Shown: positions 8,194-44,980 of the stretch, piece after piece
How positions within the stretch are numbered: position 1 is the stretch's first letter
How the letters are laid out: every line of letters begins with the position of its first letter
DNA from: Deltaproteobacteria bacterium CG11_big_fil_rev_8_21_14_0_20_45_16
GTDB lineage: Bacteria; Bdellovibrionota; UBA2394
Length of the DNA stretch: 64,000 bases
Assembly: GCA_002787535.1 (NCBI GenBank)
Contig: PCXB01000050.1
Location: 8,205 to 72,204 of the forward strand
Reading direction: 5' to 3'
Program-made: the position numbers and the translations under genes
The notes under the pieces: generated by a model
Told to the model about the DNA's origin: nothing
Database searches by the model: none
Seen by the model: only the letters and a program-made list of their open reading frames with translations

Positions 8194-8611
8194 TTTTGCT
8201 CTTGCGTTTGCTAAGCCCAGCGAGAGTATCGCGTCGATTCGAAAAGCCGATGCTCAATTTGTTGTTATTAGGGGCCATCAGTTTCAGGTTGAAGTTATGA
8301 GGACAGATGCTGAATGGTCTAAAGGTCTAATGTTTCGAGAAAGATTAGGCGCGCGAGAGGGAATGCTGTTTTTTGGGAAGATTGAGCAACCCCGATCCTT
8401 TTGGATGAAAAACACTTATGTCCCTCTTGATATCATTTTTATCTCGAAGGATCGAAAGATTGTCGATATTGGAAAAAATGCGACACCCTTATCGGAGGCA
8501 ACGATCCCGAGTAAAGCTCCAGCTATGCATGTTCTTGAGGTTTTGGCGGGAACGAGTGATAAGTTGGGATTTCAACCCGGCGACAAGGTTGAATTTAAGA
8601 TAAAGAACTAA
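8141..8611 (+). CDS. DUF192 (COG1430) family secreted protein
   Basis: 156 aa with a signal-peptide-like N-terminus and the DUF192 hallmark WMKNTYVPLDIIFI. The called start overlaps the upstream gene by 53 nt, so the start is uncertain. Confidence 0.55.
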   Translation: MHRSLIFFWTKQAVCYLSFALAFAKPSESIASIRKADAQFVVIRGHQFQVEVMRTDAEWSKGLMFRERLGAREGMLFFGKIEQPRSFWMKNTYVPLDIIFISKDRKIVDIGKNATPLSEATIPSKAPAMHVLEVLAGTSDKLGFQPGDKVEFKIKN

Positions 8612-9555
8612 GCGACCACACGATTGCGTCCGCCAACTTTGGCTTCATAGAGCTTTCTGTCTGCTTCTTCAATAAGGGCTGTGAAACTTCGAAATTGAAT
8701 TTTTTCCTTTGTCGAAAGACAGGCGACGCCAATGGAAATCGTTAGTTGAAACTCGTGATTGTCGAATTTGATCTTCAGCTCCGAGATCCCTCGTCGTAAG
8801 GATTCCCCCAAATGTTTGGCCTTTTCTCTCTCGATATCACGCATAAGAATAACAAACTCTTCGCCCCCAAATCGAGCCACGATATCATCTTTGCGTGTAT
8901 GGCTCAGAAGATGATGAGCCACTTTTTTGATCGCTAAATCACCTGCCAAATGACCGTAGGTATCGTTGACCTTTTTGAAATGATCGATGTCCAGAACAAG
9001 GATGGCCAATTCGCCATTGTGCCGTTGGGTATACGCAAATTCATCTTGAAGACGCTCAATGAAATATTTCTTGTTGTAGGTACTAGTTAAAAAATCACGA
9101 GTGGCGGCTTCATAAAGTTGGCCCAAGAATTTGGCTTCGATATCTTCCTGGAAGTGAAATTTTAAAATTGCGACAGAGCCCACCTGAATTTGGTCGCCTT
9201 CTTTTAGCTCGGCTCGATCAACGCGGCGGCCGTTTAAAAGAGTTCCATTTGTGCTCGCAAGATCAATCAATTCTGCACCCTCGGCACTGAGAACAATTTT
9301 ACAGTGATGGCGCGATACCAAATCATCTTCGACGGGAAGATCGCAATTACTGGCACGACCAATCATAAATTCTTCGTTGTTAAGCATCGGAAAAGAGCGT
9401 CCAATCTGTGGACCCGATATCATCAAAAGGGAAGGCGTTCTCTCGACTTCAAAAGGATCGATGGAGGCGATCGGGCTGATAACGGTCTGGTCGTCGGATA
9501 GTTTGAGCGAGTTCAGAATCTCGTCATCTCCTGGTTTTCGACCGCTGCTGCTCAC
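8608..9555 (-). CDS. FHA-domain diguanylate cyclase (FHA-GGDEF)
   Basis: The N-terminus has FHA features (...SRHHCKIVLSAEGAELIDLASTNGTLLNGRRV...). The C-terminal GGDEF domain carries an intact GGEEF active-site motif (ARFGGEEFVILM). Confidence 0.8.
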   Translation of the reverse strand: MSSSGRKPGDDEILNSLKLSDDQTVISPIASIDPFEVERTPSLLMISGPQIGRSFPMLNNEEFMIGRASNCDLPVEDDLVSRHHCKIVLSAEGAELIDLASTNGTLLNGRRVDRAELKEGDQIQVGSVAILKFHFQEDIEAKFLGQLYEAATRDFLTSTYNKKYFIERLQDEFAYTQRHNGELAILVLDIDHFKKVNDTYGHLAGDLAIKKVAHHLLSHTRKDDIVARFGGEEFVILMRDIEREKAKHLGESLRRGISELKIKFDNHEFQLTISIGVACLSTKEKIQFRSFTALIEEADRKLYEAKVGGRNRVVA

Positions 9556-11764: not shown

Positions 11765-11832
11765 GTCTCGGACCATTTTTTTGTTCTTTTCCGGGCAAAA
11801 TTCGTGTTACTTGAGCGAAGTTCTTATCTGAG

Positions 11833-11903
11833 GGCGGCATGGCCAAGTGGTAAGGCAAGGGTCTGCAAAATCCTCATCGCCGGTTCGAATCCGGCTGCCG
11901 CCT
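11833..11903 (+). tRNA. tRNA-Cys (anticodon GCA)
   Basis: Manual fold of 71 nt. Acceptor GGCGGCA/TGCCGCC (7 bp), D-arm GCC-AAGTGGTAA-GGC, anticodon stem AGGGT/ATCCT with loop CTGCAAA (anticodon GCA), variable loop CATC, T-arm GCCGG-TTCGAAT-CCGGC, discriminator T. CCA is not encoded. Confidence 0.85.
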
Positions 11904-11928
11904 TAATAGCAAGCACATTACAAAATCC
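11893..11928 (+). repeat. Direct repeat copy 1 (36 bp) spanning the 3' end of tRNA-Cys
   Basis: ggctgccgccttaatagcaagcacattacaaaatcc starts in the tRNA acceptor 3' strand. An identical copy lies 98 bp downstream. Confidence 0.8.
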
Positions 11929-11990
11929 TCATCGCCGGATTCGAACCGGGGACCGGTTCGTCCGACCTTTAGGTCGGCCTTTGGCCGAAC

Positions 11991-12026
11991 GGCTGCCGCC
12001 TTAATAGCAAGCACATTACAAAATCC
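11991..12026 (+). repeat. Direct repeat copy 2 (36 bp), att-like duplication of the tRNA-Cys 3' end
   Basis: An exact repeat of 11893-11928. The 62 bp between the copies contains an inverted T-arm-like box (ccggattcgaaccgg) and small hairpins. Confidence 0.8.
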
Positions 12027-12073
12027 GGACCGGTGGAATATGAGTCAAAAGCACATTCCTTAGGAATGTGCTG
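12027..12073. repeat. Conserved hairpin element, copy A (GCACATTCC-TTA-GGAATGTGC)
   Basis: ggaccggtggaatatgagtcaaaagcacattccttaggaatgtgctgg has a perfect 9-bp stem at 12051-12071. On the minus strand the stem is followed by TTTTG, giving a terminator-like context 6 nt after the NTase gene stop. Related copies are at 15010-15068 and 44806-44846. Confidence 0.7.
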
Positions 12074-12076
12074 GCT

Positions 12077-12724
12077 CTATGCCTTTCTATTCAAAAAAGC
12101 TTTTCTTATTTTCTTTGAAGCCTTCACTAGTTGAGATGGCACCAATTTTTCGACTGACAAAGGCACTTCGATTTCCAAGGCAATCATCTGTGAAACTATA
12201 TAGCCAAGATCCGCCTTTGGTTGAGATTCAAAAATTGCCTTTATATCATCAGCGTCTGCAAATCTCGTCGAATCGTTAGACAAAGAATAGAACTTGGCGA
12301 TGATCATATCTTCGAGAGTCAAGCAAGGTATTTCCAAACTGCCAAACTTGAGCACATTGCTTTGAGCTCTATCCAATGCTTTTTGAAACCACGGCATCGC
12401 TGGAAGAATAAAATCAATACCCACATGACCCTCTTTTCTCCCAACCAAAATATAAAGTGGGGATGACTTCCTCCTGACCACATGCTTTGGGCCTCCTTCA
12501 AGATTTGCCTTGCGAGCTTCTCGAATTTGAAGATTGAAGTCCGTCAGAATTTTCCTGGCGGCGCCTTCCGAGCTAGTTTCCGAATAGATCAAGAAATCAA
12601 GATCGTCAGTTGTTCTCTTATTCTTCCGATAGGTCGAGCTCGCCAAGCCTCCCGCGAGAGCAAATAAAAGCCTTTCCTCCCTCAGACGTTCGACCAGAAG
12701 TCTAGCTTGCTCAACGAGATCCAT
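12077..12724 (-). CDS. AbiEii-like nucleotidyltransferase (putative toxin / abortive-infection effector)
   Basis: 215 aa. The N-terminal LFALAGGLASSTYRKNKRTTDDLDFLI matches the hGG-x-A...Y...R-x-[ST]-x-D-[IL]-D-[FL] core of AbiEii/DUF1814-type polymerase-beta-fold NTases. Its start overlaps the stop of the upstream wHTH gene (12724). Confidence 0.6.
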   Translation of the reverse strand: MDLVEQARLLVERLREERLLFALAGGLASSTYRKNKRTTDDLDFLIYSETSSEGAARKILTDFNLQIREARKANLEGGPKHVVRRKSSPLYILVGRKEGHVGIDFILPAMPWFQKALDRAQSNVLKFGSLEIPCLTLEDMIIAKFYSLSNDSTRFADADDIKAIFESQPKADLGYIVSQMIALEIEVPLSVEKLVPSQLVKASKKIRKAFLNRKA

Positions 12725-13116
12725 TAGCGACTCGATGAAAATAATTGATTAACAGATTGTGCAAATTTATGAGCCTTTGTTGCTTCAGGTTGATGCGTGA
12801 TCGATCTAATTTTTATTTCAGATTTTTCAATTTGCGCAAATATATTCTTTAGTTCCTCATAAAGTGGGTGGCTTTGGTCCATCTGAAACAAGCGATTGTG
12901 CTTGGAGGGGGAATCGCGAACAATTTTTTGCTTTGACAGTGCGTCTAGAGCAACGACTACGGATCGGATCGGTAAATTGAGTAGATTTGCGACTGTCCTA
13001 AGCGGGATGGGTTGCGAGTATTGAATCAAAAGTTTTAGTACCTTGAATTTAGCCCTAGAACTAAAAATGTCAGCGATCTCAGTCATTACTTTTGTATTGT
13101 ATAATATTTTATACAA
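12724..13116 (-). CDS. Winged-helix DNA-binding protein (putative AbiEi-like antitoxin/regulator)
   Basis: 130 aa with an HTH-like region (...PLRTVANLLNLPIRSVVVALDALSKQKIV...), the first gene of a two-gene unit with the NTase. The start is either TTG at 13116 or ATG at 13086. A perfect palindrome overlaps the 5' end. Confidence 0.5.
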   Translation of the reverse strand: MYKILYNTKVMTEIADIFSSRAKFKVLKLLIQYSQPIPLRTVANLLNLPIRSVVVALDALSKQKIVRDSPSKHNRLFQMDQSHPLYEELKNIFAQIEKSEIKIRSITHQPEATKAHKFAQSVNQLFSSSR

Positions 13117-13119
13117 TAC
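13094..13119. promoter_or_regulatory. Perfect 11-bp-arm palindrome (GTATTGTATAA-tatt-TTATACAATAC), candidate operator for the wHTH/NTase unit
   Basis: Read directly from the sequence at the 5' end / promoter region of the minus-strand wHTH gene, inside an AT-rich intergenic stretch (13117-13183). Confidence 0.5.
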
Positions 13120-13183
13120 TTCTATAGATCAACATAACATATTAATATCATTATGTTTTAAATAAGATGCGATTTGACAGCTT

Positions 13184-14914
13184 CTACCTTAGGTTCGGTC
13201 GAATACATCCCGGCTGTGGTATGCAGGATCGCACATTCTTCGTGTTTCTTGAATCGACTCCGTACATCGGCACACAAGCGAGCTTCGGGTTATAGGGAGA
13301 CTCAAGAGATACGACCTCCATAGCGCCCCAGCCTTTTGACGTGATCATATCAGCCATTCCATCATTATCGAGATCCGCATAGGTTGGCGGATATCTTTCG
13401 CCAAAAGACGAAGAGGGTGGGATAGCCTTATAGTTTTTGAGAGCAAATGGAAACCCGCGAAGTGACTGACCAAATCGGTTAAAGGCAAACAGCGCATATT
13501 GATGATCTCCGATAGTTGCTGTGCGGAAACTGTTGAGAGCGATCCCGTAAATATCAGGATATCCATCGCCATCAAGATCGGCGACTCCCAAATTTGTCAT
13601 ATAGGAATAAGGAGGAATGGGACTATTCCAGGTATCCCAAATATCTCGTGGAAAACCTGGCAGAAATGTACCGTTGGAATTTGCTGCAAATACTCTGGTC
13701 GAATCTTGATAAACAATCTGCTGGCTTGCCGAGAAGAAATTAACTAATGCCGCATCATGCGAATAAGTATAGGCTTGCTGAGTACGAAAGCGAGATATCT
13801 CTTTCCCTGATTTGCGGTCAAATATGATCATTTCATAAGGGTAGGAGGGTGGAACGGTTACTATTGAGTTGGCGATAAGCTCACGCCTCCCATTGCCATC
13901 AAGATCGCCAATCATCGGGGGCCGCATATTGTTGGGACCCATATCGTTACTCCACTGAAGATTGCCAAAATAATCATAAGAATTTATGCGATTGCCGTAT
14001 CGAACATCGTAAGGATTAACACTTGCAACAATCCCCATAGCATCGACAGCGGGTTCCAAGAATCGATTGCCAACATTCAGTTGAATCGGCCAACCAGAAA
14101 TAGGAGTTCCATCTCCTCGAAATGCGTACAATCTTCGGCCGCCGTCGGGGTGATTGTTACTCCATCCATAATCAGGAATGAGAATATCGCTCTTACCGTT
14201 ATGGTCTAAATCCACCAAAACAGGATGATTCGAATCGCCACCAGAGAATCCAAGATCCGGACGAATTTCGCTTAGAATCTGTCCAGAATTTGACAGAACA
14301 ATAATCCCGCCGTTAACATCCGCCGACTCATTCCGTCCCGTTGCAACAACGATTTCGGGACGGTAGTCGCCAATAACATCAGCGATTCCAACAATAGATA
14401 AATAACCACATAAATAGGGAAAACTAACGGAATCTAAGATGACGGGAAATCCAGGAAGAAGATTGCCTTGCGAATCCCAAGCATAAACTCCCTGAGGAAC
14501 TAAGGTCGCACAATTCCGAGTCATATCCGCACTAAGCAAAACAGACACGATTTGTTTCCGACCATCAAGAAATAAGTCAGCGATCTTTGGCTGAGTAAAG
14601 GTTCCCGAACCGGGGCCGTCAAGCATATAAAGATCGAATTTGTGAACCGGGCCTTGATACGACGTGCTACAAGCCAAACCTTCAGGCGAGAATTGAAGGG
14701 CATCTGGTAAGAACTCGGAATTTTGATGTTCAGTTAGGGATTGAAAGTTCGGAGGTCTTACGGCATTCGATACGGAATTCACTAGGACTTCGTCTTCTCG
14801 CCCCAGTTGAATGAGTGTTTGTAGGTCTGCGGCATTTAGGACGTAACTTTCCAAAAAGCCTGACCCGCTAGTCAGAAAAACTAAATTCAATAGGACTAAA
14901 ATTAGGGGTTTCAT
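13184..14914 (-). CDS. Secreted FG-GAP/integrin-alpha-like beta-propeller repeat protein
   Basis: 576 aa with signal peptide MKPLILVLLNLVFLTSGSG. It has multiple D-x-D-x-D-G Ca-binding-like repeats (DLDHNGKSD, DLDGNGRRE, DLDGDGYPD, DLDNDGMAD) spaced as in FG-GAP/VCBS propellers. Confidence 0.6.
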   Translation of the reverse strand: MKPLILVLLNLVFLTSGSGFLESYVLNAADLQTLIQLGREDEVLVNSVSNAVRPPNFQSLTEHQNSEFLPDALQFSPEGLACSTSYQGPVHKFDLYMLDGPGSGTFTQPKIADLFLDGRKQIVSVLLSADMTRNCATLVPQGVYAWDSQGNLLPGFPVILDSVSFPYLCGYLSIVGIADVIGDYRPEIVVATGRNESADVNGGIIVLSNSGQILSEIRPDLGFSGGDSNHPVLVDLDHNGKSDILIPDYGWSNNHPDGGRRLYAFRGDGTPISGWPIQLNVGNRFLEPAVDAMGIVASVNPYDVRYGNRINSYDYFGNLQWSNDMGPNNMRPPMIGDLDGNGRRELIANSIVTVPPSYPYEMIIFDRKSGKEISRFRTQQAYTYSHDAALVNFFSASQQIVYQDSTRVFAANSNGTFLPGFPRDIWDTWNSPIPPYSYMTNLGVADLDGDGYPDIYGIALNSFRTATIGDHQYALFAFNRFGQSLRGFPFALKNYKAIPPSSSFGERYPPTYADLDNDGMADMITSKGWGAMEVVSLESPYNPKLACVPMYGVDSRNTKNVRSCIPQPGCIRPNLR

Positions 14915-15009
14915 TTTACGACTCCTTCCAATTAATTCAATTTCAGCCTGCCATCGCGCCGTTCTACTAACGACATATCATGGCCTTCCCTGGATGTGCA
15001 TTTGGCTGC

Positions 15010-15068
15010 GGATTCGAACCGGAGACCGGTGGAATATGACTCAGAATTACATTCCAAAGGAATGCTCG
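15010..15068. repeat. Conserved hairpin element, copy B, with T-arm-like box
   Basis: ggattcgaaccggagaccggtggaatatgactcagaattacattccaaaggaatgct aligns base-for-base with the split copy A (box 11937-11956 plus hairpin 12027-12071). It lies immediately after the stop of the minus-strand gene ending at 15071. Confidence 0.65.
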
Positions 15069-15070
15069 AT

Positions 15071-15445
15071 TTAGCGTTTTCTCCGCGTTTTAGATTTCTT
15101 TCGCTCTTTGGGAGTGATGCCCAATCGTCGGTCGGCGCGCTTAATGGCGCGGATTAGTTTTTGTGCTTCCAGCTCAAAGTTTTCACTGTCGGAACTTAAA
15201 TACAACCATTTTTTAAGAATGGGATGTTGTTGCAAACAATCAAACTCACCGAGCAAACTTTCATGATCTTCAAAATCAACTGGAAATAACAGGCCGCGCC
15301 ACGGTGCTTCGGAATCCGCCATCACGAGGACCATCAGTCCGTGCAAATAGATGGCTTTGCAGCCAAACATTCTCTTGGACAAATAGGAATCCAGATCCGT
15401 CAAATCTTCAATTAAATAATCGAGGCTATGAGTGAGAGCGGCCAT
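15071..15445 (-). CDS. TfoX N-terminal-domain-like protein
   Basis: 124 aa. The KRMFGCKAIYLHGLMVLV segment resembles the K-x-MFGG-x-x-x-Y core of the TfoX/Sxy N-domain, and the protein has a basic C-terminal tail. Confidence 0.4.
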   Translation of the reverse strand: MAALTHSLDYLIEDLTDLDSYLSKRMFGCKAIYLHGLMVLVMADSEAPWRGLLFPVDFEDHESLLGEFDCLQQHPILKKWLYLSSDSENFELEAQKLIRAIKRADRRLGITPKERKKSKTRRKR

Positions 15446-15580: not shown

Positions 15581-16282
15581 ATGAGTTTGATGTATGTAGT
15601 ACTGAGCAGTTATTTTATGATTACCGAAATTTCTGATGACGACGGATATTATCGGGTCTGGAGTTCAGATCCCAGCTCGATCTCGGCTGTTGCGAGCGAT
15701 GAGGCTCTTGAGCAAACGATTAAAATTCAGGTCGATCGACTGGCAACAAATGAAACTTGGAAGTTTAAGTTCAAAAGTGGCACGGAATTCCTAACCAAAG
15801 GCCATGGAAGCTTTAGTATCATTCAAAGACTGGAGGCTACCGATGGCACTATGTCTTGTAATCGCGGACTTCCAAGCTATACAACGGTTACCGATTTGGC
15901 GGACATTATTAACTCATGTCCTTTTGTTAGAGCCGTAACTTACAATACTGGAGATGGTTCAAAGCGTCCTTTTGCCTTATCGATTCAGGCGACTTGGCGA
16001 TTGGGCAAAATTCACTCGGATAACACGCCTGGTAAAAATTTCAATTTGAAATTTGTCGGCGAAGGAATGATAACGCGAGTCTTTGAAAATGCTAAACCTT
16101 TGTTTGAGGGGCGTGACGCTAAAATTTATCTCAATGGGGATCTGCATTCTCCCATTTTTTTTGATTCCAACCTAGTCACTGGAATCATTCCAGGCGTGGA
16201 CATTCGCCTTAAGCAGCCGACGACAATGCCGGTCACACTGGTTCATGATAAGTCGAAGGATAAGTACTGCACGCAAGATTGA
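15581..16282 (+). CDS. Hypothetical protein
   Basis: 233 aa ORF with a good RBS (agggag, 8 nt upstream) and no recognisable motifs. Confidence 0.45.
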   Translation: MSLMYVVLSSYFMITEISDDDGYYRVWSSDPSSISAVASDEALEQTIKIQVDRLATNETWKFKFKSGTEFLTKGHGSFSIIQRLEATDGTMSCNRGLPSYTTVTDLADIINSCPFVRAVTYNTGDGSKRPFALSIQATWRLGKIHSDNTPGKNFNLKFVGEGMITRVFENAKPLFEGRDAKIYLNGDLHSPIFFDSNLVTGIIPGVDIRLKQPTTMPVTLVHDKSKDKYCTQD

Positions 16283-44729: not shown

Positions 44730-44805
44730 TTTTCAATGTTCCTTATATCCCGCCGTCCCACAGCTGGACATGTTACGTCGAGTTTTCAAAACATCTCCAG
44801 GAATC

Positions 44806-44846
44806 GGTCGAGTATGAGTCAAAATCACATTCCTAAGGAATGTCCG
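44806..44846. repeat. Conserved hairpin element, copy C, nested in a larger inverted repeat
   Basis: gtcgagtatgagtcaaaatcacattcctaaggaatgtccg has an 8-bp stem (ACATTCC/GGAATGT). Flanking inverted repeats are cacagctggaca at 44768-81 and tgtccagctgggg at 44850-62. Confidence 0.6.
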
Positions 44847-44980
44847 TCCTGTCCAGCTGGGGTCCCACGCGAGTTCTTTAAATCCCATTCGATACTATTC
44901 AATCGCATGTAATGACGAGGCTTTTTCAGTTGCAGCTATGGAACGCTTCTTGAATAGATAGCTACTGGAGGACGGATCTA

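Follow-up and report, generated by a model that had tools for sequence, protein, structure and literature searches.

What is the segment of about 3 kb that follows a tRNA-Cys gene in the genome of Deltaproteobacteria bacterium CG11_big_fil_rev_8_21_14_0_20_45_16 (Bdellovibrionota), and how did it come to be there? The window analyzed here is a stretch of 64,000 nucleotides of contig PCXB01000050.1. An earlier note, made from the letters of this window, described the segment as an islet between imperfect direct repeats that carries an AbiE-like gene pair and a gene for an FG-GAP propeller protein. Comparison with contigs of a sister species identifies the 3-kb segment as an islet, a real insertion that is absent from that species.

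An insertion absent from the sister species

We reached the sister species by a search with the TfoX-like protein encoded at the right edge of the segment. The contigs of this species (L094-L098) come from the same aquifer samples, its TfoX-like ortholog (P0002) is 83% identical to that of the window, and the flanking DNA is ~75-92% identical. In the sister, PilZ, tRNA-Cys, a relic of the tRNA 3' half, a single copy of a short hairpin module and the TfoX-like stop codon all occur within ~300 nt, and synteny is otherwise conserved. Window positions 11780-12072 align to the sister locus with 91% column identity, and homology ends just past the hairpin sequence GGAATGT, at ~12072. BLAST aligned the 44-nt module of the sister to two places in the window (12029-12072 and 15025-15068) and gave no match in the sister contigs examined for the window sequence between 12072 and 15025. 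Where the sister has one copy of this sequence, the window has two, with 2,996 additional bases exactly between them.

The locus is empty in a close relative, the direct repeats match the single site of the empty allele, and the extra bases are bounded by two module copies. Thus, the islet reading of the earlier note holds, and the empty-site allele that it suggested looking for in a relative exists. Both junctions are spanned by independent assemblies from ENA, JGI and Logan (several samples) that are 99.3-100% identical to the window, so the arrangement is not an assembly artefact. The occupied arrangement was found in every contig of the window population recovered from these sources. Features of the locus, and the evidence on which each was called, are as follows.

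11832-11904, plus strand: tRNA-Cys (GCA), called by ARAGORN and Rfam (tRNA, 65.8 bits); 100% identical in the sister species
11921-12003, plus strand: relic copy of the tRNA-Cys 3' half (repeat search and sister alignment)
12015-12078, plus strand: left module copy, L (repeat and pattern search, sister alignment, BLAST, profile search; fold)
12077-12724, minus strand: candidate nucleotidyltransferase (NTase) toxin of 215 aa, DUF1814/AbiEii family, MenT1-like (Pfam, PDB profile, AlphaFold2 (AF2), Foldseek)
12724-13086, minus strand: candidate antitoxin of 120 aa, winged-helix (metagenome gene calls, homologues, profile matches)
13094-13119, no strand: perfect 11-bp inverted repeat, candidate operator (repeat search; putative function)
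13184-14914, minus strand: secreted FG-GAP beta-propeller protein of 576 aa (Pfam FG-GAP_3)
15009-15068, plus strand: right module copy, R, in compact form (repeat and pattern searches, profile search)
15071-15445, minus strand: TfoX_N-like gene, flanking host DNA outside the islet (weak Pfam match, ortholog P0002, synteny)
44775-44852, plus strand: hairpin module, third copy; lacks the box described below (BLAST, profile search; fold)

The minus strand carries every gene in and beside the islet segment. The NCBI locus tags of the three islet genes and the TfoX-like gene fall between COV44_06070 and COV44_06085. The NTase and FG-GAP gene calls of the earlier note hold; the TfoX_N-like gene, which it had placed between the repeats, lies outside the right copy, and its TfoX_N Pfam match (21.7 bits) is under the cut-off of 30.1. 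Adjoining the TfoX-like gene is a weakly FliD-like gene of 233 aa (15581-16282). Its sister ortholog is of 138 aa (L094 7566-7982) and is missing an in-frame stretch of 277 nt (~15730-16006). Breaks at ~16031 and ~14959 are seen in several short contigs of the window species.

The sister species has extra DNA of its own nearby, namely a gene of 190 aa without a Pfam match between the YacP and M23 peptidase genes (L094 9749-10321) and a 1.1-kb block with a gene of 137 aa (L094 6463-7565). These blocks are not associated with the hairpin module, and the neighbourhood is rich in indels. In a distant lineage with a TfoX-like protein that is ~50% identical, genes for an Xre/ParS-type antitoxin and a RES toxin occur directly downstream of the TfoX-like gene (L101 1790-2900), where a 90%-identical relative has 263 nt (L100 3110-3372). 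This is a second toxin-antitoxin pair that landed just after a TfoX-like gene.

The flanking repeats and the hairpin module

The repeats that flank the islet are real and non-random. The box and the adjoining pattern reported in the earlier note are where it placed them: the 20-nt box GGATTCGAACCGGRGACCGG is found at 11937-11956 and again at 15010-15029 (chance expectation, 0.01 matches), and the 23-nt pattern GACCGGTGGAATATGASTCARAA at 12028-12050 and 15024-15046 (chance expectation, 0.00 matches). A repeat search identified a direct pair of 41 nt with 85% identity (12028-12068 and 15024-15064) and another of 22 nt with 95% identity (11936-11957 and 15009-15030).

The left copy has the ancestral long layout, in which the box is followed by 77 nt and then by the hairpin module. 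Its core (12028-12072) includes the 10-bp hairpin AGCACATTCC-TTA-GGAATGTGCT at 12050-12072, and L begins 4 nt beyond the NTase stop codon, which is on the minus strand. The predicted fold has an energy of -18.8 kcal/mol (z -3.4). In R, the box (15009-15030) is joined directly to the module (15024-15064, with the hairpin at 15049-15064), and 2 nt separate the end of the copy from the TfoX-like stop codon. R corresponds to the left region minus the 77 nt between two GACCGGT heptamers. The earlier note had taken the additional bases on the left for a 70-bp insertion splitting that copy; the sister shares this layout, which is therefore ancestral.

The box is part of a duplication of the tRNA-Cys 3' half, which the earlier note overlooked. 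Positions 11866-11894 of the tRNA gene resemble 11921-11949. The relic runs from the anticodon loop to the acceptor end, starting 17 nt downstream of tRNA-Cys, and contains the box as CGGATTCGAACCGGGGACCGGT at 11936-11957. Its T-loop is inverted (ATTCGAA vs TTCGAAT), and its T-arm holds inserted extra hairpins. The box resembles a reverse-complemented T-arm because a hairpin loop is inverted inside a same-strand copy. The relic is identical at 77 of 83 positions in the window and the sister, compared with 50-75% identity in the spacers on either side and 75% in the coding DNA of the TfoX-like gene. As it is present in the species with the empty site, the relic predates the islet. The repeats are not simple tRNA 3'-end remnants left at each end of the segment, as had been proposed: the true relic is shared with the empty-site species, and the T-arm box of R copies a piece of it. 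Given that the box is a piece of a locus-specific tRNA relic, R has its origin here or at the corresponding locus of a relative. Judged by its sequence, R cannot be a generic repeat.

The high conservation of the relic may indicate that it is functional (e.g., by serving the tRNA as a terminator or processing element) or that it is kept alike by gene conversion. Nearby, there is an exact 37-nt duplication (11892-11928 = 11990-12026, comprising the tRNA 3' end and 23 nt of spacer). The sister, which has a different second spacer, does not have this duplication, and recent gene conversion within the locus is suggested. The T-loop inversion occurs between CCGG stems (TTCGAAT at window 11884-11890 vs ATTCGAA at 11939-11945). 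Similarly, a triplet loop reads CCGG-GGA-CCGG in the window (11950-11952) and CCGG-TCC-CCGG in the sister (L094 ~8611-8613), within ~76 nt that are otherwise identical. Both of these loop inversions look like template-switch (quasipalindrome) mutation.

Within the 45-nt core of the module, L and R share derived states relative to the sister and third copies (e.g., GGAATAT vs GGAGTAT). R has five private changes and L has two; L is nearer to the sister copy than R is, with only 2 of 45 positions behind this statement. The divergence of L from R (~12.5% over 56 nt) is similar to that of the window and sister modules (~13%). This dates the event to roughly the time of the species split, unless the donor of R had already diverged.

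The module is repeated at dispersed sites, in low copy number. With a profile of four copies, unfiltered nhmmer identified exactly three copies in the window and none in the extra 8.3 kb and 6.8 kb at the window ends (i.e., three copies at two loci in the ~79 kb examined). The third copy, also overlooked in the earlier note, is 89% identical over 62 nt to the copy of the sister at a non-homologous locus. A perfect 10-bp inverted repeat (CAGCTGGACA / TGTCCAGCTG; fold z -3.8, minus strand) encloses this copy, which is intergenic, between two unrelated plus-strand genes without Pfam matches and not behind a co-directional gene. The short contig L114 ends at ~44842, inside this copy. According to the earlier note, it would argue against an islet if the module were a ubiquitous REP-like (repetitive extragenic palindrome) element scattered over hundreds of sites. 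This objection applies in part: the module does occur at an unrelated locus at 44.8 kb, but at three copies rather than hundreds.

L, R and the sister copy are each located 2-5 nt after a stop codon, and on the gene strand a short T-run follows the hairpin. A simple terminator scan calls none of the module hairpins, which are at best weak terminators. Rfam identified only the tRNA for the islet and nothing for the third module. Exact-pattern scans gave one contig of this species and one of the sister from metagenomes and none from viral contigs; the metagenome scan missed even the longer contigs of the window, and is thus a weak negative.

Several known types of element were considered for the module and rejected. 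An integron attC site does not fit, as no R''/R' cores (RYYYAAC / GTTRRRY) are present in the four module copies and the third copy does not follow a co-oriented gene. A dif-like site was ruled out by direct inspection of the sequence. An IS200/IS605-like element with hairpins at both ends was set aside because the empty site keeps one complete module.

Genes carried by the islet

The NTase matches the Pfam AbiEii family (PF08843) with 35.2 bits, relative to a cut-off of 22.5, and 26 further relatives with 39-80% identity were identified. Conserved in the alignment (27 homologues) are G25-G26, D41/D43, D104, K144, R154, D157 and D160 (GG..DLD; K..R..D..D). A profile of the NTase family matches Mycobacterium tuberculosis MenT1 (8an4) over residues 4-174 (E 1.3e-6). 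The AF2 model (pLDDT 92.7) has MenT1/MenAT1 as top Foldseek matches (E 2.5e-8, TM 0.61-0.68). By motifs, profile and predicted structure, the protein is a short DUF1814/AbiEii-family enzyme that is nearest to MenT1. Plasmid and phage collections yielded no DNA match and no NTase protein match, and no viral relative of the family was found.

The stop codon of the partner gene overlaps the start of the NTase gene by 1 nt (TAATG). The open reading frame (ORF) of the partner extends from 12724 to 13116; metagenome records call a protein of 120 aa (12724-13086), and the longer form is probably unused. The partner has an N-terminal winged-helix domain followed by a C-terminal helix. The protein itself has no Pfam match, no AbiEi domain and no PADLOC match to AbiEi. 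Its family includes 149 cluster representatives of ~120 aa, and the family profile matches winged-helix structures of the ArsR/SmtB/MarR type (E 3e-4 to 1e-2). Family members match HTH_IclR, MarR and TrmB. The single-sequence AF2 model of the partner (pLDDT 46) was unusable.

The description of the pair as AbiE-like applies to the NTase, which belongs to the AbiEii/DUF1814 family, has the pol-beta motifs and has an overlapping winged-helix partner. It does not apply to the partner, which is not AbiEi-like. AbiEi proteins (COG5340) have a winged helix plus a C-terminal domain and are ~200-300 aa long, whereas the partner is of 120 aa and has only generic winged-helix similarity. The earlier note suggested the use of defense-system predictors. 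The best PADLOC match of the NTase to AbiEii is marginal (E 0.0027, 14.7 bits) and covers only the N-terminal motif region. The partner was matched to PDC-M05A (E 3e-7); PDC-M05 is a candidate NTase plus HEPN system (PMC12988326). We rejected this assignment and read the match as shared-domain similarity only.

The inverted repeat GTATTGTATAA-N4-TTATACAATAC (13094-13119) is located 8 nt upstream of the partner start and overlaps a TATAAT-like box. From this position, the palindrome is likely an autoregulatory operator, and we list it as a candidate.

NTase homologues with 80%, 69% and 61% identity occur in three other contexts, in each case directly after an overlapping or abutting gene of 119-123 aa. 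A gene of this size precedes the NTase gene in all four contexts, and its product could be aligned in three of the four (i.e., in two of the three other loci, with 71% and 45% identity to the partner). The other pairs are flanked by housekeeping genes in two cases (miaA/mutL and maf/yggS, in L104 and L105) and by unannotated genes in the third contig. Neither the FG-GAP gene nor the hairpin module was found in any of the three other NTase-pair loci. To judge by gene order, the NTase and its partner move as a self-contained unit of two genes.

MenT toxins add nucleotides to the 3' ends of tRNAs, and their antitoxins come from diverse families (PMC10435456, PMC7450476). By analogy, the NTase of the islet probably extends tRNA 3' ends with nucleotides and so blocks translation, and the 120-aa partner probably neutralizes the toxin and represses the operon at the upstream palindrome. 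The pair shares with MenAT1 of M. tuberculosis (Rv0078A/Rv0078B) and with the DUF1814 family, including AbiEii, the AbiEii domain and the GG..DxD and K..R..D..D motifs. Also shared with MenAT1 are an NTase of ~200 aa and a two-gene operon with an overlapping upstream partner, and MenT1 is the best match by both profile and fold. The pair differs from MenAT1 in that the NTase is 17-20% identical to MenT1 and the partner is a winged-helix protein of 120 aa rather than the 68-aa MenA1. The partner also falls outside the MenA3/AbiEi type of antitoxin (COG5340; PMC10435456). In sum, a DUF1814 fold near that of a solved MenT structure and a conserved adjacent gene for a candidate antitoxin are both present, and the antitoxin families of MenT-type systems are known to vary (PMC10435456). 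An AbiEi antitoxin, which would be needed for an AbiE system, is lacking.

The FG-GAP protein matches Pfam FG-GAP_3 (E 6.8e-15) and has an N-terminal signal-like segment and four calcium-type DxDxD/NG loops. Its gene is a transcription unit separate from the NTase pair. One homologue with >30% identity was identified (41%), in an unrelated context beside a glycosyltransferase gene. As the three homologous NTase pairs elsewhere are without an FG-GAP gene, the protein is, on comparative grounds, cargo unrelated to the pair rather than its co-traveller, as had been suggested.

Origin of the islet and its rivals

We consider it reasonably probable that the islet formed by insertion at the hairpin module, via a Campbell-type event, with a cargo of two unrelated units. 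A block of 2,996 bp (~12073-15068) would have entered the short spacer that separates the hairpin module from the TfoX-like stop codon, ~125-170 nt downstream of tRNA-Cys, so that the insert became bounded by an imperfect direct duplication of the insertion site itself. The likeliest route would be a single crossover between a circular or donor DNA that carried a copy of the site and the chromosomal site. We infer this step because the site is single in the empty allele and present as direct copies on both sides of the insert, as would fit a Campbell-type crossover. The crossover may have been catalyzed by a recombinase encoded elsewhere, or may have been plain homologous recombination.

No integrase was identified by Pfam in any islet ORF, in agreement with the earlier note, and no integrase or transposase domain was identified in the annotated genes over ~65 kb of the ~79 kb examined. 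Because there is no integrase, composition is host-like and the islet is present in every assembly of the species recovered, it is probably old, now immobile and similar to a cis-mobilizable element (CIME). CIMEs are islands without integration or transfer genes that retain attL and attR (PMC6323972). Shared with these are the flanking direct repeats, in which the single site of the empty allele is duplicated, the absence of integrase and transfer genes, and the small accessory cargo. In contrast to a CIME, no partner integrative and conjugative element (ICE) or integrase was identified, and the repeats are 85-95% identical, one being a compact derivative. The islet is probably fixed and decaying.

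Several observations weigh against this account. No recombinase, circular form or second occupied site was seen, and no outgroup with this synteny was found. A scan with the neighbouring YacP of a collection of species-representative genomes, which does not include this organism or close relatives of it, gave only matches with ≤36% identity, mostly from Planctomycetota, and the farther TfoX-like relatives (L100 and L101, 49-51% identity) have a different context without the tRNA and are uninformative regarding gain vs loss. Repeat-mediated loss in the sister would give the same picture as insertion in the window lineage. The islet genes have GC contents of 0.39-0.46 and GC3 values of 0.37-0.44, inside the range of the neighbouring genes. 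L and R are about as diverged as the two species are, and the third module copy elsewhere means that recombination between dispersed repeats is also possible. In addition, the structural relatives behind the predicted functions of the pair have the low sequence identities given above.

If the block were ancestral, the sister species would have lost 3 kb by recombination between the direct repeats, and the difference would be a deletion rather than an insertion in the window lineage. This is unlikely, but it has points in its favor: a single module is left in the sister, as repeat recombination predicts; the L-R divergence about equals the species divergence; the block has host-like composition; and at least three other indels distinguish the two species within 14 kb. 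However, the sister copy has none of the five private changes of R, and no FG-GAP relative with >41% identity was found among 5.8 billion proteins, a collection that includes the contigs of the sister. Furthermore, the NTase pair demonstrably moves between contexts, and an earlier insertion would still be required to make the repeats. It is quite unlikely that the module is a REP-like or terminator-like dispersed repeat, with two independent copies after gene ends that flank the block incidentally or due to recombination between dispersed copies. The module does resemble REP-like repeats: it is a hairpin-containing sequence of ~60 nt that closely follows stop codons in intergenic DNA, it is present at more than one locus, and the two species have conserved copies of it at sites that are not homologous. 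The third copy at an unrelated locus, the hairpin and short T-run on the gene strand behind the stop codons at L, R and the sister copy, and the end of contig L114 inside the third module are in line with this. It differs in its low number of copies in ~79 kb, in that no RAYT-type gene was seen and in the lack of an inverted-pair (REPIN) organization. R holds the locus-specific box, which the third copy lacks, so this locus is the source of R; the orientation of the third copy does not place it behind a co-directional gene, and the exact-pattern scans gave no other loci, within the limit stated for metagenomes.

On another reading, the ~60-nt module would be a dedicated att-like landing site just after stop codons, where integrase-less blocks are inserted and duplicated by a recombinase encoded elsewhere. 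This would amount to a cassette-like system distinct from integrons. The idea is suggested by the 89% conservation of the module between the two species at loci that are not homologous, by its presence at more than one locus per genome and by its coincidence with the exact boundaries of this indel; we regard it as very unlikely. Least probable of all is a classical tRNA-targeting island, formed by an integrase that acted at the 3' end of tRNA-Cys and was later lost, with the repeats as att scars. A partial direct copy of the 3' half beside a tRNA gene is the usual sign of past integration by tyrosine integrases. The locus has such a copy next to tRNA-Cys, and the box equals the reverse complement of the T-arm. 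Yet the relic is nearly unchanged in the empty-site species and so comes from an older event, the boundary of the islet is at the downstream hairpin module and not in the tRNA, and the likeness to a reversed T-arm comes from the inverted hairpin loop in a same-strand copy. There is also no integrase in the islet ORFs or annotated neighbours, and the three islet genes lack the atypical base composition expected of a tRNA-integrating island. The sister locus thus largely refutes this reading.

Insertion at the hairpin module remains the account that we favor, and the locus is an ordinary kind of small genomic islet that poses no challenge to current models. It is a clean, small example of accessory-gene placement in an uncultured groundwater bacterium, with occupied and empty alleles in sister species from the same aquifer. 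It also adds a subfamily of short MenT1-like NTases that are paired with a winged-helix partner of ~120 aa (149 partner cluster representatives), and as such may be of interest to those who catalogue toxin-antitoxin and defense systems.

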